From Bacillota bacterium (lineage in GTDB: Bacteria; Bacillota; Clostridia; Acetivibrionales; JAMNXU01): a DNA stretch of 64,000 nucleotides. The first letter of the stretch is position 1. Each line of letters opens with the position of its first letter. The stretch spans positions 6,912 through 70,911 of the forward strand of contig JAMNXU010000021.1 of NCBI GenBank assembly GCA_023623175.1. Reading direction: 5' to 3'. This document shows positions 15,408 to 57,433 of the stretch, one piece after another. The notes under the pieces were generated by a model. It was not told the origin of the DNA. It worked only from the letters and a program-made list of their open reading frames with translations, and did not search any database. Position numbers and translations under genes: made by a program.

Positions 15408-16294
15408 GTCAGGTTACTGGGAATTCCCACGGTAGTCGACAGGATGATTCAGCAGGCCATTGCCCAGGTTCTAACACCCATATTTGACCCTGAATTCTCG
15501 GAGAACAGCTAGCCGTCCGGTTTCGGTATCTCCACTCTCCGTACGGGCTTGGGACGATATGTCCCTGCCTTCAATTCCTCGATTAGATTATTGCCATTTT
15601 CTTTCAGGTATGGCAGAAGTTCATCCACCTTTATACCGTCAATTCCATGGGAGCCCTTGTTCCTGACTACCTGTTTGTAGGCAGCGTTCATGTTGTCGCT
15701 ACTCAATATCTTCTCGAGCAAATTAAAGGTACTTGCTTCTCCATTGTCCTGTCCGTTTGTTTCCGCCGGAAGTATTCTCCGCACTCCTGCCATACCTCGG
15801 GGTTCCACCCCTGCCTCTGGCAGGTAGCCTTCATATGAAGTTGTCTGCTCTCTACGAATCCTTCTCGAGTCCTTCAAGCTTTCAGAACCTCCTGTTGTTC
15901 AGCCCTTCCGCGCCGTTCATGACCGTCGCGTACTATGGCCTCTGCTGACTTCTGACCGTTCAGCCGTACATTACTGCACGGATTGCCTTGTGGAAATTCA
16001 TCCAATTCAGAGTACCGGTCAGACCTCCGCGGGTAAGCGCGCGCCCCTTCATCCCATATACCTGCTTCATTTACATCGCAAGCCTCGGATAGCATTGGAC
16101 TTCGTTTTGTTTAGCAAACTCGTCCGACTTGCATATGCCTCATATGAAGTTCCTGTTCGTCAGGCCGGGACTTTGCCTCCTACTTCCTTCAGATTCCACC
16201 TCGCGATGGACACCCTTGTCTTTGGCTAACGGTTGGTGCTATCAACCCCCGTAACGGACTTTCACCGTCAAGGTCGCGCGCATGCCGCGCGCAC
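15408..16294 (-). mobile_element. 3'-truncated group II intron remnant (5' ribozyme domains plus the first ~155 codons of the RT/maturase)
   Basis: On the minus strand it starts GTGCGCGCGG at 16294 and contains GACGGTGAAAGTCCG-type domain I sequence. ORF 15509-15877 encodes the RT N-terminus (LLEKILSSDNMNAAYKQVVRNKGSHGIDG...RRVEIPKPDG). The next RT block VRLLGIPTVVDRMIQQAIAQVLTPIFDPEFSENS is present but on the opposite strand (15408-15509). No domain V/VI or RT palm/X domains follow. Confidence 0.85.
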
Positions 16295-20836: not shown

Positions 20837-20879
20837 GGGACACGGGGACAACGGGACACGGGGACGGTTCTCCTGTCCC
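20837..20879. repeat. GC-rich palindromic dispersed repeat (GGGACACGGGGA family), 1.5 copies
   Basis: GGGACACGGGGACAACGGGACACGGGGACGGTTCTCCTGTCCC. The same motif recurs at 27420, 47515 and 47615, partially at 45922, and in degenerate form at 14551. Confidence 0.85.
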
Positions 20880-21099
20880 AATTGAAAAAAGGGAATAGAA
20901 GGCAGGGACATGGAACAGTTCTTTGCCCCCAACTAAAGTAAAAAACGAAAATAAGAAGCGAACTACTCAGTATGCAAACTTAATGGAAGCAGGCAGGAGA
21001 ACCGGCAAAACAGCATCAAAACAAGTATCAAGACAAGTACCAGAACAAGTGTCGCTACAAGTTTTAACAAAACCATTTTTCACAGGGAGGAATTTTTTT

Positions 21100-33528: not shown

Positions 33529-33621
33529 GACATTTACCGGATGTCACAAAAAAATTGTATCCAGTCAAGTTTTTATATCATAAAAAAATTTTTTAATAAT
33601 AAAAACAAATGATTTTCGTAA

Positions 33622-33842
33622 AAAAGTGATTTTCCTGCAAAAACGAAATTTGCCTCAAGGTGAATTGCCAAAATCAGACATCGAGCCGCAGCGCAGCAAG
33701 CGATTAGGAGGCCGGGCCTGCGAAAGAACCTCTCCTGGCGCAGAAGGCGCGTATGTGGTCCCGGCGGCTTGAAACGCCAGGCAAGACGATACTGATTTCA
33801 ATGTATCTTTCACGAATTAATTTTTGCAGGAAAATCACTTTT
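33622..33842 (+). repeat. ~220-bp hairpin element bounded by terminal inverted repeats (TIRs), copy A (MITE-like or structured RNA)
   Basis: Terminal inverted repeats AAAAGTGATTTTCCTGCAAAAA ... TTTTTGCAGGAAAATCACTTTT. About 80 percent identical by eye to 40406-40625. GC-rich centre and no conserved ORF. Confidence 0.8.
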
Positions 33843-33981
33843 AATTTTTAAATAATTTAATTAATTTAATAATTTTAAATAAAGTCTACTTATAAATGAA
33901 TACTTGAAATTTGTTTTGCCCCAAAATTCAAATGTTTAAGCTTGAGCCTGTCTTTTAAATATTTAAGCCTTTTTTCAAAAT

Positions 33982-40386: not shown

Positions 40387-40405
40387 CTGGTTCCTTAGAA
40401 ACTTA

Positions 40406-40625
40406 AAAAGTGGTTTTCCTGCAAAAACGAAATTTGCTTTAAAGATGAGTTGCCAAAATCAGCCGTCGAGCCGCAGCGTCGAAAACGATTCGGAGGCCGG
40501 ATGCCTCCGAAAGGACCACTCCTGGCGCAGGAGGCGCGCATGTGGTCCGTTCGTTTGAGATGCGAGGCGAGACGATGCTGATTTCAACGACATCTTTACA
40601 AATTGAGTTTTTGCAGGAAACCACT
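40406..40625 (+). repeat. ~220-bp TIR-bounded hairpin element, copy B
   Basis: AAAAGTGGTTTTCCTGCAAAAA ... TTTTTGCAGGAAACCACT. The arms pair block by block, and the centre has the CGGAGGC-CGGAT-GCCTCCG hairpin. Confidence 0.8.
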
Positions 40626-40714
40626 CTAAATTTGTAAAGCCGCCAAATATAAAGCCGCTCAAATATTTAACGGGCTTTTGCCCTGGTGCAAAAACCCGTT
40701 TTGTAATTCAAATC

Positions 40715-41251: not shown

Positions 41252-41602
41252 TCAAATATCGGTCAACCCGAAACTTATCTCCAGCGCCTCGTTCACCTTT
41301 TTCATCAGCTTGTCGTCAAGTCGCCCGATCCTTTCCCTCAGGCGCTTCCTGTCAATTGTCCGGATCTGTTCAAGCAAAATAACCGAGTCTTTCTCCAACC
41401 CATATTCCTTCGCGCTTATCTCGATATGGGTAGGCAATTTCGCCTTGTTGATCTGCGATGTTATCGCAGCAACAATGACGGTAGGACTGTATTTGTTTCC
41501 TATATCATTCTGGATTATAAGTACAGGTCTTATGCCGCCTTGTTCCGAGCCCACAACCGGGCTCAGATCGGCATAGAAAATATCTCCCCTTTTAATTACC
41601 AC
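41252..41602 (-). CDS. mazF: MazF/PemK/EndoA type II toxin endoribonuclease
   Basis: 116 aa. [31 protein letters not shown] closely resembles B. subtilis NdoA. Confidence 0.9.
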
Positions 41603-41880
41603 TATCCTTCCATCTCCCCAAGCAGTTCTTCGTATTGACTGCTTTGCTCATTGTCAGCCGCCAGACACATTTCAGCAAACTTTACGTTGATTTCAGCCAT
41701 TTCTTCGTAACCTTTTTTCATACCTTCCCTCGTCCCTATCTTTTGTCTCTGAAGTATATACAACCTCATGGCTTCCCGGATAAGCTTGCTCCTGTTGGTC
41801 TTTTCCACAGAAGCGATATTATCAACCTCTTTAAGAAGATTGTCCGGAAGGCTTATTATTATTCTTTTCAGCTCTGCCAA
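41602..41880 (-). CDS. mazE: MazE/EndoAI antitoxin (ribbon-helix-helix)
   Basis: TTG start after a GGGGGGG RBS gives ~92 aa. [16 protein letters not shown] is RHH-like. The stop overlaps the mazF start. The ORF-track start at 41943 is a less likely alternative. Confidence 0.75.
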
Positions 41881-42210
41881 AATAACCCCCCCAATTTTAT
41901 CCGGGCTAATTATGTATACCCTGGAAGCTAATCGTCGGAACACGCATAAAAACAGTCTTATAGTATATATATCATTATATCCCTGATATATGCATGGGTC
42001 AAATTAAAAAATAATAAAATAAACACGGTTGAAACCTTGAAACGATATTATTCGGCTTATTTCAGCTATTGGTACCGAACGGGACCCATACGTGACATGA
42101 CAAATATTTTCTATTAGGTAAATATTTTGCAATTGATCGTCGGAAACAGAATGCCTCAGTTTATGCCAATACCACAGTAAAGATGTTCAAATCCACCGAT
42201 AATCCATTAT

Positions 42211-46039: not shown

Positions 46040-47590
46040 ATGGAAACCGGAAGAATCAAAAAAACCATGGCGCTTGACACGCTGCTGTATGTGCCGGGTA
46101 AAATACTCGAGGGACTGGTGAGTTTCCTTACGCTGTCCCTCTACTCGCACTATTTTGTTACATCGGATTACGGAAAATACAATATTGCGACGGTCAGCGC
46201 CAATGTTGCATTTTTGCTGACGCTTAACTGGATAAGCCAGTCTGTTTTCCGGTACATAAACAAGTACAGGGGTAAAAAAAGGCTTACCTTGATGTACTCC
46301 ACCGTTTTCCGCGCCTGGGCGGTCATCAGCGGGGCCATGCTGCTTGTTTCCGCGGTGGCCATAGCTGTATACGGCGCCGCTTCGCGGCCCGGAACTGAAT
46401 TGATACTTTTTCTTGCGGCTGCAGCTCTCGCTTCCGTGACCTATGGAACAACCCAGATACTGTTCAGCCTGCTTTCCGCCATAAGAAGCCTGAAGCTTTT
46501 TCTAGCAATGTCGCTTTTTTCCGTTACTTTCAAGCTTCTGACAACCACGGTTCTTGTCATGAAATTCAATCTCGGCATCCTGAGCGCCCTGATCAGTATC
46601 GTCCTGATAGACTGCATTGTCACTGCAATTATTGTCCTGAGACTGAAAATATATAAATTCATCATCCCGGGCAGGTATTCGCGGGTTGTGCTGCTCAAAT
46701 TCCGCAGTTACGGTATTCCGCTGATTGCCAACGGCATATCGATGAGCCTGCTTAATGTTTCGGACAGGTATGCTCTCGGGTTGCTGAAAGGAACATCCCA
46801 GGTAGGAATATATTCGGCCAATTACGGCATTGCGTCGGCCGTGTTCAGCATGCTGAACTTTGCGCTGATGAGGGCCTCCTACCCTTCAATAATCAGGGCG
46901 TGGAGGCAGGATGAGCGCAAAGAGGCTTCCGAGCTTCTGAGCCATGCGGTGCGCAACTACCTTTTGCTGGCGCTGCCTGCCGCCGCGGGCCTCAGTATGC
47001 TTTCGGGACAGATCGCGCGTCTTTTTCTCGAGGAAAAATACCATGCCGGAAGTTTCGTAATCATCTGGGTCAGCGTCGGCATGGTGCTGCTGGGTCTGAC
47101 CGAATACAGCAACAAGGCATGGGAACTGACTTCCAGAACCGCAATGATTTCGAAAAACAGCGTTGTCTGTGGCGTATACAACATAGTCTCGAACCTCGTA
47201 TTCATTCCTTTTTACGGTTACACGGCCGCCGCCGTCAATACGACGCTTTCCTACCTCGTATATTTTTGCCTGTCCTTTTTCAAGGGAAAAAAAATACTGT
47301 CGTGGAGACTGGGCGCCAAAACGGTTTTACGACTGCTGGCCGCCAACGGCGCCATGGCGCTGCTTATCGCAGCGGTCCTTGTATTTTCCAACCCCGGAAA
47401 ACTTGAACTTGTAGCCCTTGTGCTGGCCGGCGCCGTTGTATACTCCGTCGCGCTCTATATAACGGGAGAGATCAGGCCGGAAGTGCGCATGCTCGCAGCT
47501 GCCGCAAAGGGTTTCCTGTCCGGTACACGGGGACGGTTCTCCGGGACACGGGGACGGTTCTCCTGTCCCATTTTTAAGAAAAAAAGGTGA
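46040..47590 (+). CDS. MOP-superfamily oligosaccharide flippase (Wzx-like polysaccharide biosynthesis protein)
   Basis: 516 aa with about 14 hydrophobic segments. The last ~22 codons (GTRGRFSGTRGRFSCPIFKKKR) are encoded by the GGGACACGGGGA repeat. Confidence 0.8.
   Translation: METGRIKKTMALDTLLYVPGKILEGLVSFLTLSLYSHYFVTSDYGKYNIATVSANVAFLLTLNWISQSVFRYINKYRGKKRLTLMYSTVFRAWAVISGAMLLVSAVAIAVYGAASRPGTELILFLAAAALASVTYGTTQILFSLLSAIRSLKLFLAMSLFSVTFKLLTTTVLVMKFNLGILSALISIVLIDCIVTAIIVLRLKIYKFIIPGRYSRVVLLKFRSYGIPLIANGISMSLLNVSDRYALGLLKGTSQVGIYSANYGIASAVFSMLNFALMRASYPSIIRAWRQDERKEASELLSHAVRNYLLLALPAAAGLSMLSGQIARLFLEEKYHAGSFVIIWVSVGMVLLGLTEYSNKAWELTSRTAMISKNSVVCGVYNIVSNLVFIPFYGYTAAAVNTTLSYLVYFCLSFFKGKKILSWRLGAKTVLRLLAANGAMALLIAAVLVFSNPGKLELVALVLAGAVVYSVALYITGEIRPEVRMLAAAAKGFLSGTRGRFSGTRGRFSCPIFKKKR
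47515..47569. repeat. GGGACACGGGGA-family repeat, two tandem units, inside the 3' end of the flippase ORF
   Basis: CCTGTCCGGTACACGGGGACGGTTCTCCGGGACACGGGGACGGTTCTCCTGTCCC. Confidence 0.85.
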
Positions 47591-47614: not shown

Positions 47615-47652
47615 GGGACACGGGTGGGACACGGGGACGGTTCTCTCGTCCC
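47615..47652. repeat. GGGACACGGGGA-family repeat copy
   Basis: GGGACACGGGTGGGACACGGGGACGGTTCTCTCGTCCC. Confidence 0.85.
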
Positions 47653-47851
47653 GCTTCACAAAACGGACGGCAGACGGTTAAAAACAATGTAAGAATGGGA
47701 AACGGGCGCAGACGGTTAATAAACTATGTAAATTAGCCCGGTATAAAATATCGGGATTAATAAATTGGGCATATTTAATAAATTGGGCATATAAGGCATA
47801 TAATATATGCCCGTTTGACAAATTACAACCAGGAAATACTTTGGAGGATTT

Positions 47852-49132
47852 ATGAAAAAGGTTCTTATAATAGCTTATCAATTCCCGCCTGTCGGCGGTT
47901 CGGGAGTCCAGAGGACGTCCAAATTTGTCAAATACCTCAGGAATTTTGATTGGGAACCGGTTGTGCTGACAAGGACTCTCGGCAGGATGGAACTCAGGGA
48001 TGACTCACTGCTCAGGGACATCCCGGAGGGCACCAGGGTTTACAGGACCAGGGCCTGGGATTTCAATGTCTGGCCCGGTATATTGAAACTTCCGGGAAAG
48101 TTTATAGCGCGCAAGGTCCTGATACCCGACGGCGAACGCCTGTGGCAGCTTTCCGCGCGCAAGGCCGCTGAAAAAATCATCCGCGAAGAAAATATCGACC
48201 TTGTATACACCACTTCCTATCCCTACAGCGCCCATCTTCTTGGGCTCCATCTCAAGAAGGTTTTTCCGGATATCCCGTGGGTGGCCGATTTCAGGGATGA
48301 GTGGATGAACAATCCCTACCTCCTGGACAATCCCCATTACAGGCTCAGGATGAAAATCGAGGCCAAAATGGAGCGCCAGGTGCTTTCAAACGCCGACTGC
48401 CTCATTACAAATACTCCCGTAATGCTTAACAATTTTGTCACGAACCACGAAGACCTCAACCTCAGGAATAAGTTCTTCTGCATTCCCAACGGGTTTGACC
48501 CCGATGATTTCCACGAAGTTACCGGGGAAAAGCCCAGCAACGAGAAATTTACCATTACATACACGGGGGCTCTCTACGGCCGCAGAAAGCCCGACACCTT
48601 CCTTGCGGCCCTCGGCAAACTTGTGCGCGAAGGAGCTGTTCCCCGCGACAAAATTACGGTGGAGTTTATAGGCCATTTCCATGCAGACCGCCTGCTGGGG
48701 CAGGCCGAGAGCGAAGGCCTGGGCGGCATTGTAAAATGCACCTCGTTCATTGAGCACAGCGAATGCATCAAGAAGCTTGCGTACAGTGACTGCCTGCTTT
48801 TGATCGAAGGAGGCGGAAAAGGCGGAGAGGCTTTCTTTACGGGCAAGATATTTGAATACATTAATGCCGGCCGGCCAATACTGGCCTGCATACCGGCTAA
48901 CGGAGCGGCTGCCGGTGTCATACGCGAGACCCGGACAGGCCTTGTTTCAGATTTCTACGATGTCGACGGCACTGCGGCGAACTTGCTGACGTTCTTCAAC
49001 AACTGGCTTGAAGGAAAAAATGAATATAACCCTGACCGCCAGGCGATCAGCCGCTATGACCGGAAAACCCTCACGCAGGAACTGTCCGGGGTGTTTGAAA
49101 CTGCCCTCGCGAAAACCGGGCAGTCAGGTTAG
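47852..49132 (+). CDS. glycosyltransferase (GT-B fold, group 1-like)
   Basis: 426 aa. N-terminal KVLIIAYQFPPVGGSGVQR is typical of GT4-like enzymes. GGAGG RBS. Confidence 0.7.
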   Translation: MKKVLIIAYQFPPVGGSGVQRTSKFVKYLRNFDWEPVVLTRTLGRMELRDDSLLRDIPEGTRVYRTRAWDFNVWPGILKLPGKFIARKVLIPDGERLWQLSARKAAEKIIREENIDLVYTTSYPYSAHLLGLHLKKVFPDIPWVADFRDEWMNNPYLLDNPHYRLRMKIEAKMERQVLSNADCLITNTPVMLNNFVTNHEDLNLRNKFFCIPNGFDPDDFHEVTGEKPSNEKFTITYTGALYGRRKPDTFLAALGKLVREGAVPRDKITVEFIGHFHADRLLGQAESEGLGGIVKCTSFIEHSECIKKLAYSDCLLLIEGGGKGGEAFFTGKIFEYINAGRPILACIPANGAAAGVIRETRTGLVSDFYDVDGTAANLLTFFNNWLEGKNEYNPDRQAISRYDRKTLTQELSGVFETALAKTGQSG

Positions 49133-54697: not shown

Positions 54698-56248
54698 CTA
54701 CTTAACCTTCCTTAAATTGACCAGCCTTTTTAAATCCTGTTTTCTCAGGGCGCCGACAATAACCATCAGCGCGAAACCTATCGTTACATCGCCTAAAATG
54801 GCCAGCAGCGCCGTCAGCCTGTCATTGAGCCCAAACATGCTGAAAAAGTGATAAACATAGCGTCCCGCCAGGCACATGAACAAACATACTATACCGGGTT
54901 TCAATATCCAGTTCCTGATGTCCAATGCAAGACCCGTAGCCTTCATAACAGTATGGAGATTGAGAATGCATACTACCGCGGTGCTTATGGCGATTCCCCA
55001 AATATAGCCGCGGACGCCGTAGACGGGGATTAAGAAATATACAAAGAATATTCGTATAGCGCTTCCGAGTATTGAGTGTCTCAGTGAAATCCCCTGTTTG
55101 CCAAGGCCGTTGATTATTCCCAGCAATGTTTGCTGCACGTAAAGAAATACGCATGTAAACGCCATCGAATGCAGCATGCCGCCAATGTTTTCCCTCCTGT
55201 GGAAAATATCGCTGATTTCATGGGGATATACAAGAAAAACCGCGGAAAATATGAAACCCATGATAAAGCTCATTTGTATCGATTTGCTTATCCTGTAGTT
55301 CACGAGCCTGAAGTTTTTCAGCGAGACTGCCTCGGAAATGGCCGGAACAAGCGTTGTAGCAAGCGAAGAAGTTACAATCGACGGAAAGAAAAGCAGGGGC
55401 ATGGCCATACCGGTCAGTCGACCGTATTCCTCGATGCTTTGCTTGTACTGGAGGCCGCTTGCGAGAAGACGCCTTGGAATTAACAGGTATTCCACCGATG
55501 ACATTATCGATGTTATAAAACGATTGAAGGAAACGGGTATGGAAAAAAGTATAAGTTTTCTTACAATAACCCTTTTGCGGATAAGCCCGGCGGTTGACAG
55601 CCTTCCGGCCTTTCTGCGGTGATACCGATATACTGCTGCTACAACGGCAAGATTTGATATTTCACCAATGGCCGTTCCCACCGTGGCAAGAGCGCATGCG
55701 TATTCAAGTCCGATGTTCAGGAAGTAGCGCGCCATTGTCATTACAAGCCCGATTCTTACTATTTGTTCAACCACCTGCGATACCGCGGTGGGGACGACAT
55801 CCTGGATCCCATAAAAATATCCCTTTATTGCCGAAGCTGCTGCTATCACAGGTATGCACGGCACCGTCAGCACCATTGACCAGTAGGTTCGTTCGTCCTT
55901 TAAAATGACTGTGACGATAGGATCCATGAATATGTAAAGAAATACGGACACGATAAGCCCTGCCGCTACTACAACCACGGTGGCGCATGTAGTTATTCTT
56001 CTAAGATTAATCAGATGCCCCTTGGCATATTCCTCCGCCACCATTTTTGAAACGGCTATTGAGATGCCTGAGGTTAATGTAAGAATAATAAGAGAATACA
56101 GAGGTGATATCAGCTGGAACAGTCCCACGCCCTCTGCCCCGATGGCATTGGACAGGTAAATCCTGTATACAAAACCGAGCATGCGGACAATAAATCCGGC
56201 CACCATCAGGATTATGGCACCGCCAACAAAGGACTTTTTGGCCATCAA
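54698..56248 (-). CDS. spoVB: stage V sporulation protein B-like MOP flippase (SpoVB/MurJ family)
   Basis: 516 aa. The N-terminus KSFVGGAIILMVAGFIVRMLGFVYRIYLSNAIGAEGVGLFQL is SpoVB-like, with 14 TM segments. Confidence 0.8.
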   Translation of the reverse strand: MMAKKSFVGGAIILMVAGFIVRMLGFVYRIYLSNAIGAEGVGLFQLISPLYSLIILTLTSGISIAVSKMVAEEYAKGHLINLRRITTCATVVVVAAGLIVSVFLYIFMDPIVTVILKDERTYWSMVLTVPCIPVIAAASAIKGYFYGIQDVVPTAVSQVVEQIVRIGLVMTMARYFLNIGLEYACALATVGTAIGEISNLAVVAAVYRYHRRKAGRLSTAGLIRKRVIVRKLILFSIPVSFNRFITSIMSSVEYLLIPRRLLASGLQYKQSIEEYGRLTGMAMPLLFFPSIVTSSLATTLVPAISEAVSLKNFRLVNYRISKSIQMSFIMGFIFSAVFLVYPHEISDIFHRRENIGGMLHSMAFTCVFLYVQQTLLGIINGLGKQGISLRHSILGSAIRIFFVYFLIPVYGVRGYIWGIAISTAVVCILNLHTVMKATGLALDIRNWILKPGIVCLFMCLAGRYVYHFFSMFGLNDRLTALLAILGDVTIGFALMVIVGALRKQDLKRLVNLRKVK

Positions 56249-56289
56249 TACCCCAATTGAGCGATAAATCCTGTTTAAAGTATATTTTC

Positions 56290-56505
56290 GTCAGGAGTAA
56301 GTTATTACGGAATTGAAGATGGACTTAATTTGCCTCGCTTTTAAAACGAATGGGCTACATACAGGCTTCCTGCTCTAAGAGCAGTCTTTTTGCAGGCTCG
56401 GCCTCCGAGCCGTTTTCGACGCTGTGGCCCTGCGGCTTATTTCAACAACTCATCTTAAAAGCAAATTGTATTTTTACGGTAAAATCATCCCTGCGAGTAA
56501 TAATT
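56290..56505 (-). repeat. ~220-bp hairpin element, diverged copy C (inverted orientation)
   Basis: The reverse complement of 56345-56500 aligns with the left arm and core of copies A/B (..AATTTGCTTTTAAGATGAGTTG..CAGCGTCGAAAACGGCTCGGAGGCCGAGCC..). The right arm is weakly conserved. Confidence 0.65.
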
Positions 56506-56556: not shown

Positions 56557-56585
56557 TTGAATTGATGGTTTACATAATTTATAAT
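56557..56585 (+). promoter_or_regulatory. sigma-A-type promoter of the riboswitch-NlpC/P60 transcript
   Basis: TTGAAT, a 17-nt spacer, then TATAAT. Confidence 0.65.
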
Positions 56586-56604
56586 ATGTCGAGTCGAAAA
56601 CAAA

Positions 56605-56745
56605 CTATTATTGCCGAATCCTGCCGCAGGCAGGAGCGGGGGACATTAAACTTTGGGGTTAATCCGTCCGGCTTGCGATGCCGGATGGTAGGGGAACCGC
56701 TCTCTCCGCACCCGTCAACTAACCTCGCAGGCATTAGAGAGGAGT
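56605..56745 (+). ncRNA. ydaO/yuaA-class c-di-AMP riboswitch
   Basis: Conserved blocks GCCGAATCC, GAGCGGGGGAC, GGGGTTAATCC, GGTAGGGGAACC and ACCCGTCAACTAACCTCGCAGGC match the B. subtilis ydaO leader almost block for block. It lies upstream of a cell-wall hydrolase, the classic context. Confidence 0.9.
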
Positions 56746-56752
56746 AATAGTT

Positions 56753-57433
56753 ATGTTCAAAAGTAAAAGTTTGTCTAATGGAATGTTCAAAAAAACAGTA
56801 TCGCTTGTAGTTGCCCTTGCATGCGCAACTATTTTCTGGGCAAGCACTGCCCACGCCGACTATTATTCATCAAGGATACTTTTAAAGGAAGGCATGCGCC
56901 ACAGTGAAGTAGTAAGGTTGCAAAATGATCTGAAGAGTCTTGGCTACTTTTATGCAAATTCAACAGGCTATTTCGGCCCTATAACAAAACAGGCCGTAAT
57001 CAACTACCAGAGGGACCGCAAGCTGCTCGTGGACGGTATAGTAGGCCCGCAGACAGCAAGGCAGATTAAGGTTGACAGGATACTGGCGACTGCCATGAAG
57101 TACATCGGAGTGCCTTACCAGTGGGGAGGTACATCGCCAAAGGGCTTTGACTGTTCAGGTTTCACCCACTATGTAATGCTTCAGCATAACGTGATAATAC
57201 CGAGAGTTGCAAGGAATCAATACTATGACGCAGGAACCTGGGTTGCGTGGAACTCTCTTAAACCGGGAGACCTGGTCTTCTTCACGACATATGCGCCGGG
57301 TCCGTCCCACGTTGGAATTTATATAGGCAACAACCAGTTTATTCACTCAAGTTCCTCAAAGGGAGTTGTAATTTCCAGCCTGACAAATACCTATTACGCG
57401 ACCCGCTATATCGGGGCAAAAAGAGTGATATAG
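56753..57433 (+). CDS. secreted peptidoglycan-binding NlpC/P60 family endopeptidase
   Basis: 226 aa. Signal peptide, PG_binding_1 repeat (VVRLQNDLKSLGYF...GPIT) and the NlpC/P60 catalytic block YQWGGTSPKGFDCSGF ... HVGIY. Confidence 0.9.
   Translation: MFKSKSLSNGMFKKTVSLVVALACATIFWASTAHADYYSSRILLKEGMRHSEVVRLQNDLKSLGYFYANSTGYFGPITKQAVINYQRDRKLLVDGIVGPQTARQIKVDRILATAMKYIGVPYQWGGTSPKGFDCSGFTHYVMLQHNVIIPRVARNQYYDAGTWVAWNSLKPGDLVFFTTYAPGPSHVGIYIGNNQFIHSSSSKGVVISSLTNTYYATRYIGAKRVI

Follow-up and report, generated by a model that had tools for sequence, protein, structure and literature searches.

Is the non-coding unit of about 220 bp that begins at position 33,622 a mobile hairpin, or is it a structured RNA present in several copies? 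Both options had been offered by the original prediction, which claimed three copies of one non-coding element, and both were examined here across the whole stretch of DNA analyzed (64 kb, hereafter called the window). Searches with blastn and nhmmer located three copies, termed A, B, and C, at or near the positions first proposed (Table 1). Copies A and B, which had been judged about 80% identical by eye, were aligned by blastn with 82% identity over 235 nt (33615-33850 vs 40405-40636, E 6e-57). The stronger divergence and inverted orientation of copy C were borne out as well, this copy being 75% identical to B over 158 nt (inverted, 56487-56332, E 5e-26) and 68% identical to A over 159 nt. 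When a nhmmer profile of the three copies was run on the 64-kb window, it matched the loci of A, B, and C and no fourth locus at E <= 10; in the same run A and B, being palindromic, also matched themselves on the reverse strand.

The repeat unit has a length of 215-221 bp across the three copies, and each copy consists of AT-rich arms of ~60 nt (34-45% GC) around a core of ~94 nt (63-66% GC). The GC content of the window is 47% overall and that of the flanks of copy A 19-22%. Homology between A, B, and C stops abruptly at the inverted repeats, beyond which the flanks are unrelated, unalignable AT-rich intergenic DNA. In segment alignments, A and B share 87% identity in the left arm, 80% in the centre, and 78% in the right arm, and the corresponding values for B and C are 66, 73, and 52%. 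No reading frame is common to the three copies, since each of the six frames is either interrupted or differs from copy to copy; this agrees with the earlier statement that no ORF is shared. A small-protein hypothesis is ruled out by the same differences between the frames.

Table 1. Positions of the three copies of the ~220-bp repeat, their segments, terminal repeats, and possible target-site duplications within the window.
Feature	Position	Strand	Evidence or remark
Copy A	33622-33842	+	blastn; nhmmer E 3e-71; fold -86.8 kcal/mol, z -5.8
Copy A, left terminal inverted repeat AAAAGTGATTTTCCTGCAAAAA	33622-33643	+	22/22 complementary to 33821-33842
Copy A, right terminal inverted repeat TTTTTGCAGGAAAATCACTTTT	33821-33842	+	blastn, pattern count
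Copy A, left arm	33622-33682	+	36% GC
Copy A, GC-rich centre	33683-33775	+	66% GC
Copy A, right arm	33776-33842	+	34% GC
Possible target-site duplication TAA, left of copy A	33619-33621		partner TAA 33842-33844 if the element ends at 33841
Copy B, best-preserved hairpin	40406-40626	+	blastn; nhmmer E 5e-74; fold
Copy B, arms	40406-40467 and 40562-40626	+	
Copy B, centre	40468-40561	+	tip hairpins TTCGGAGGC-CGGAT-GCCTCCGAA and GGACCAC...GTGGTCC
Possible target-site duplication TAA, left of copy B	40404-40406		partner TAA 40627-40629
Copy C, decayed and inverted	about 56283-56497	-	blastn; nhmmer 56275-56496, E 3e-63; segment alignments

The copies occupy three unrelated intergenic contexts in both orientations. 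Copy A lies between the stop codons of a PHP-family histidinol phosphatase gene (33528, + strand) and a gene for the C-half of transketolase (33982, - strand). Copy B starts 20 nt past the stop codon of a WecG/TagA gene (40386, + strand) and is followed by the stop codon of a convergent gene for 169 amino acids (40715, - strand), ahead of which a terminator-like hairpin can be read from the sequence at about 40669-40702. Located between the WecG stop and this hairpin, copy B is probably co-transcribed with WecG. Copy C is found between the start of a Polysacc_synt/MatE flippase gene (56248, - strand), with respect to which it is sense-oriented and upstream, and a c-di-AMP riboswitch preceding an NlpC/P60 gene, to which it stands back to back. 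This is the distribution that had been described initially, with two copies between convergent gene ends and one in a divergent promoter region.

Some features next to the copies were recorded independently of the repeat. The c-di-AMP (ydaO/yuaA) riboswitch (56602-56748, + strand, 86 bits) lies directly 5′ of a gene for a cell-wall hydrolase with NlpC/P60 and PG_binding_1 domains (56753-57433), and a good promoter match, TTGAAT-17-TATAAT, is present ahead of it at 56557-56585. The window contains two paralogous flippases of the Polysacc_synt type with 516 amino acids each, one of which (46040-47590, + strand) is the syntenic orthologue of a flippase in a relative (L129), the other (54698-56248, - strand) being the paralogue with copy C upstream. 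Adjoining the alanine racemase gene, an ORF for a PemK/MazF-like toxin (116 amino acids) and a small upstream ORF (113 amino acids) are encoded at 41252-41943 (- strand), a position in which syntenic relatives have a PemK/MazF toxin and an RHH/MazE antitoxin.

The original prediction had also ascribed terminal inverted repeats of ~20 bp to copies A and B. For A these repeats were found to be perfect over 22 bp, and for B the claim stands with the qualification that the right repeat (GGAAACCACTCT) is imperfect, with one base deleted and one or two mismatches. In copy C the inverted repeats are degenerate, and a remnant of the right one (CGAAAATATACTTT) is seen at about 56283-56300. A 19-nt core of the inverted repeat occurs three times in the window (chance expectation 0.07), and the terminal sequence by which a parent IS would be recognised is GTGATTTTCCTGCAAAAA. 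The ends of copy A read CG-TAA-A-AAAGTGA...TCACTTT-TAA-T and those of copy B CT-TAA-AAAGTGG...CCACTC-TAA-A, and the right flank of copy C starts with TAAA. With the ends shifted by 1-2 nt within A/T runs, both A and B can be bracketed by TAA or TA, so that a 3-bp TAA or a 2-bp TA target-site duplication at these two copies appears possible, if ambiguous. Because of this shift and of the A and T runs in which it would lie, such a duplication is suggestive only, and TAA/TA flanks in AT-rich DNA are indistinguishable from chance.

We favor, at a probability of roughly 0.6, the reading that the ~220-bp unit, with ~60 bp of pairing between its AT-rich arms, is a lineage-specific MITE-like repeat of an unnamed family, served in trans by a transposase from outside the window. 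Of the two options in the original prediction, this one is preferred because homology is sharply bounded at the inverted repeats, because the three AT-rich insertion contexts are unrelated and include both orientations, because decay is graded and base-pair changes fit neutral decay, because no ORF, promoter, or terminator is common to the copies and no Rfam family matches them, because the repeat is absent at syntenic sites in relatives, and because its size and architecture match those of prokaryotic MITEs (PMC10969869). The structured-RNA option is weakened by these results but retains a small probability.

That second option, which we regard as unlikely, holds that the copies are a multi-copy structured RNA, either a family of small RNAs or UTR hairpins that act in cis on the stability or processing of neighbouring genes for cell-envelope polysaccharides (WecG/TagA, flippase), the long stem and the GC-rich three-way tip being the functional structure. 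Support for it comes from the fold of copy B, which is exceptional: the MFE structure has -115.8 kcal/mol (z = -11.2, with 0 of 200 shuffled sequences as good) and forms a near-complete hairpin of 85 pairs, one of them G-U, whose pairing runs well past the inverted repeats. Both the block-by-block pairing of the arms and the two GC-rich tip hairpins that had been noticed in B were reproduced in this fold. The fold of copy A (-86.8 kcal/mol, z = -5.8) is weaker than that of B, and that of copy C (z = -2.2) is marginal and barely beats shuffled sequence, owing to the loss of ~13 nt from the right arm of C and to the numerous substitutions there. In all three copies one and the same strand of the element folds slightly better than the other (-86.8 vs -84.7 kcal/mol for A, -115.8 vs -108.0 kcal/mol for B, and -58.7 vs -54.5 kcal/mol for C), which would also be in line with a functional RNA, as would the conservation pattern of the decayed copy C, which is closest to B in its centre (73% identity). 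However, copy C is without a closing stem, and the tip hairpins of B are unconserved in the other copies, the helices GGAGGC/GCCUCC and GGACCAC/GUGGUCC being broken or re-registered in A and C. A conserved tip structure is ruled out by this finding.

Changes at paired positions bear on the same alternative. Several AU<->GC double changes were observed in the stems between copies, their number being 9 vs 4.7 in shuffles, a count that is biased because the structure was derived from the same three sequences. For an unbiased test, the fold of B alone was taken, A and C were mapped onto it, and neutral mutation was simulated with the observed substitution number and the observed transition share. 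Against this neutral simulation on the B structure, which comprises three sequences, copy A has 3 compensated pairs vs 0.9 expected (P = 0.05) and copy C has 3 vs 3.4 expected (P = 0.69), and broken pairs in A and C are as frequent as under the neutral expectation. The double changes in A speak to some extent for a selected RNA; nevertheless, the simulation gave no convincing excess of compensatory change for the three copies, and the pair changes as a whole fit the neutral model. Decay is graded in the order of the fold z values, being least in B (-11.2), intermediate in A (-5.8), and most advanced in C (-2.2). The simplest reading of these observations is the neutral decay of an ancestral hairpin to which B is closest.

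A scan of the whole window against Rfam 15 at gathering thresholds yielded no match on copies A, B, or C, the matches in the window being confined to a group II intron fragment, a riboswitch, and a tRNA. A permissive scan of each copy (E <= 10) produced noise, with no overlapping match above about 17 bits, so the earlier reluctance to assign the element to a known family holds at both settings, and the lack of any Rfam match even at E <= 10 counts against a structured RNA. Consensus scans found no sigma-70-like promoter common to the copies and none at all in copy B, and no sense-strand terminator was called at the element end of A, B, or C; on the antisense strand, terminator-like hairpins were called within the centre of each copy. 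The sequences upstream of the copies are unrelated to each other. A promoter and a terminator of its own within the repeated unit, as expected of an independent small-RNA gene, were thus not found. The genomic contexts speak in favor of a structured RNA, with copy B probably co-transcribed with WecG and copy C in sense orientation upstream of the flippase gene.

Two Rfam matches in the window deserve separate mention. Domains D1-D4 of a group II intron were detected at 15902-16210 (- strand; RF02001 148 bits, RF01998 75 bits), with no match to domain V/VI and no reverse-transcriptase ORF following; downstream lie an ORF for 122 amino acids without Pfam match and genes for Big_14 and HAD proteins. 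This locus resembles either an intron without ORF or the 5′ fragment of a truncated one. A link between the ~220-bp repeat and the group II intron is ruled out, as blastn and profile searches showed no sequence similarity. In the AT-rich gap to the right of copy A, at 33910-33960 (+ strand), the permissive scan gave a partial match of low score to the RAGATH-13 ribozyme model (16 bits, gathering threshold 80, E 2.5). It is absent from the whole-window gathering scan and is almost certainly noise.

Judged by its protein sequences, the host represents an isolated lineage of the Clostridia in the vicinity of Caldicoprobacterales. Its closest non-self HisZ is 77% identical and lies on a 1.7-kb contig, other HisZ matches have 65% identity or less, and the best matches for WecG and HisJ are 68 and 56% identical, respectively. 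Syntenic relatives keep the gene order WecG, convergent '...LVKGPYTIK' gene, PemK/MazF, RHH antitoxin, and alanine racemase, and in three of them (60-63% protein identity) the element is absent downstream of WecG, the gap after this gene measuring 6, 73, or 119 bp vs 328 bp in the window. As these relatives are distant, the difference could reflect a deletion there instead of an insertion here. Nor did the three-copy profile match anywhere in the distinct DNA of relatives, about 110 kb in total. Two ENA contigs from different samples (L121, 975-995; L122, 855-875) carry the closest relative of WecG (68% identical) and both end at the same base, 21 nt past the WecG stop codon (...cataacctattgcttt), which suggests a repeat or a strain-variable junction at this point. 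The terminal bases of the two contigs are unlike the ~220-bp element.

The search of larger sequence collections yielded no homologue. Metagenome scans with two patterns built from positions invariant in A, B, and C gave one chance match, on an AT-rich, eukaryote-like contig, and pattern scans of a viral collection returned nothing or matches confined to the seeded stretch of ~35 nt. In blastn searches against plasmids and phages no full-length match was found, the left-end matches being at chance level and inside coding genes. A GC-rich pattern with 17 specified bases (16 fixed and one Y) had at least 120 chance matches among genome contigs, in high-GC genomes, and none of the matches listed proved real by blastn. 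The literature search, too, retrieved nothing relevant on the inverted-repeat sequence or on MITEs of Clostridia. For a structured RNA, this lack of homologues in relatives and collections is a further difficulty, since a conserved functional RNA should leave a trace.

Less probable still, and doubtful in our view, is a lineage-restricted functional hairpin, which would be either a new structured-RNA class in the UTRs of cell-wall polysaccharide genes or a hairpin-dependent mobile element without target duplication, with arms that co-evolve so as to preserve the fold. Such a hairpin would explain why A and B differ by AU<->GC double changes and why folding shows a consistent strand bias.

It is very unlikely that the unit is a palindrome retained at gene ends because it blocks transcription in both directions or serves as a terminator-like repeat comparable to the pneumococcal SPRITE. 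Copies A and B do lie exactly between convergent genes, copy A is the sole GC-rich hairpin in its 453-bp gap and has an A-run on its left and TTTTAATTTTT on its right, the antisense terminator-like hairpins mentioned above occur in the centre of each copy, and terminator-like MITEs have been noted (PMC10969869). However, a stem of ~100 bp with an AU-rich base is unlike an intrinsic terminator, the terminator scan did not call the element itself, the T-tract of copy B is poor and a separate terminator-like hairpin follows it, and copy C is situated in a divergent promoter region, in which a terminator would have no meaningful role.

We attach equally little credence to a relic of another mobile or replicative entity, such as the end of a hairpin-dependent single-strand transposon without target duplication or a palindrome resembling a single-strand origin. 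The lack of a clear target-site duplication, a left arm that in A and B ends with one terminal A more than the right arm, and pairing well past the inverted repeats would suit such an entity, and a CAGCGT motif in the centre resembles TAGCGT, the CS-6 sequence of ssoA origins. This likeness extends to 5 of 6 bases, however, and is absent from copy A; moreover, no Y1/HUH transposase, replication, or integrase gene is found nearby, all three copies are located between housekeeping genes, and ends of the IS200/IS605 type are not terminal inverted repeats. Finally, a REP/REPIN element (GC-rich palindromes of 20-40 nt with a RAYT transposase) is dismissed, given a unit of 220 bp with AT-rich arms and no RAYT-like gene among the 20 ORFs scanned.

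Other small repeats of the window are distinct from the one discussed here. A second family, (C)GGGACACGGGGACGGTTCTCC(TGTCCC), was noticed at 20841-20890, 47521-47580, and 47617-47663, where it occurs singly and in tandem just past gene ends, including that of the flippase paralogue at 46040-47590, and contains a GGGACA...TGTCCC hairpin; a REP-like nature or an association with terminators is possible. In addition, direct repeats are present at 47660-47800, upstream of a gene starting at 47852 (CAGACGGTTAA twice, TTAATAAATTGGGCATAT twice, then the palindromic GGCATATAATATATGCC), and represent possible candidate operator or regulator-binding sites.

To return to the MITE-like reading, prokaryotic MITEs are described as elements of <500 bp that have inverted repeats of ~4-30 bp, insert into AT-rich intergenic DNA, and give rise to transcripts with very stable hairpins (PMC10969869). 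The repeat of the window is likewise non-coding and below 500 bp, its inverted repeats fall into the range of ~4-30 bp, and it combines AT-rich intergenic sites with a very stable hairpin. The closest parallels are Chunjie of Geobacter uraniireducens (235 bp) and QMITE2 of Coxiella burnetii (about 190 bp, repeats of 23-29 bp, -113 kcal/mol; PMC10969869), which it resembles in size, in inverted repeats of ~22-29 bp, in intergenic location, and in copies ranging from full-length to truncated or decayed, the hairpin energy of QMITE2 being nearly equal to the -116 kcal/mol of copy B. The likeness drawn here is one of size, repeats, and fold energy; a relationship in sequence would not be expected, since the hosts belong to different phyla. 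Moreover, Chunjie and QMITE2 each number tens of copies and are flanked by clear direct repeats (7-9 bp long in QMITE2), whereas here the duplication is ambiguous and three copies are known.

Other known repeats share single traits with the ~220-bp unit. The Correia/NEMIS elements of Neisseria are also inverted-repeat hairpins beside genes and co-transcribed with them, and the cleavage of their paired repeats by RNase III (PMC10969869) offers a plausible model, by analogy, for how RNA containing copies B and C may behave. They differ in their length of about 100-155 bp and in their TA duplication, IHF sites, and promoter boxes, none of which is demonstrated in the ~220-bp repeat. ERIC/IRU sequences are imperfect palindromes in transcribed intergenic DNA, often at 3′ gene ends, that affect mRNA stability; in contrast to the present unit they are 127 bp long, enterobacterial, of other sequence, and without a GC-rich branched core. 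The pneumococcal SPRITE, RUP, and BOX elements are small interspersed repeats of a Firmicute as well, RUP having IS-like inverted repeats and SPRITE being terminator-like (PMC3049150; PMC10969869), but they measure about 100-150 bp, are unrelated in sequence, and number hundreds of copies. The 6S RNA and other long-hairpin families of Rfam share the shape of a long hairpin of ~200 nt; they are set apart by the lack of an Rfam score above noise, the lack of a central bubble, and the presence of multiple, partly decayed copies of the repeat. The unit is best filed as an unnamed family of an already well-known kind, the small mobile inverted-repeat elements.

Several observations weigh against the MITE-like reading. 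None of the copies A, B, and C has an unambiguous target-site duplication, the 20 ORFs scanned in the window include no transposase, no further copy of the inverted repeat occurs there, and the plasmid collection contained no matching IS ends above chance level. The three known copies all lie within the 64-kb window. In addition, compensatory changes are mildly overrepresented between A and B (P = 0.05), and the slightly better folding of the same strand in all copies would also fit selection on RNA.

We infer both the transposition of the ~220-bp repeat and any effect that it has on RNA. Under the MITE-like reading, a transposase encoded outside the window would have recognised the inverted repeats, and copies would have been placed at gene ends in intergenic DNA of very high AT content, with TAA or TA as possible targets. 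Neutral drift after insertion would then have left B almost intact, A partly degraded, and C badly degraded. Wherever a copy became part of a transcript, as may be the case for B in the 3′ region of WecG and for C in the flippase leader, a long double-stranded RNA hairpin would be expected to form. By analogy to the Correia and ERIC repeats, such a hairpin could incidentally alter the stability or processing of the transcript as a by-product.

Small inverted-repeat hairpins at gene ends are well known from many bacteria, and the MITE-like reading raises no new biological question; the importance of the repeat would be greater only if its copies were processed, functional RNAs that affect cell-envelope polysaccharide genes. 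If the MITE-like reading is true, the copies would represent a repeat family not described before, from a lineage of the Clostridia that lies near Caldicoprobacterales and has been poorly sampled. Knowledge of this family would aid annotation, as hairpins of ~220 bp would not be miscalled as sRNAs or terminators, and could be of use for strain typing. It would also hint at a transposase that is, or was until recently, active in the host genome.
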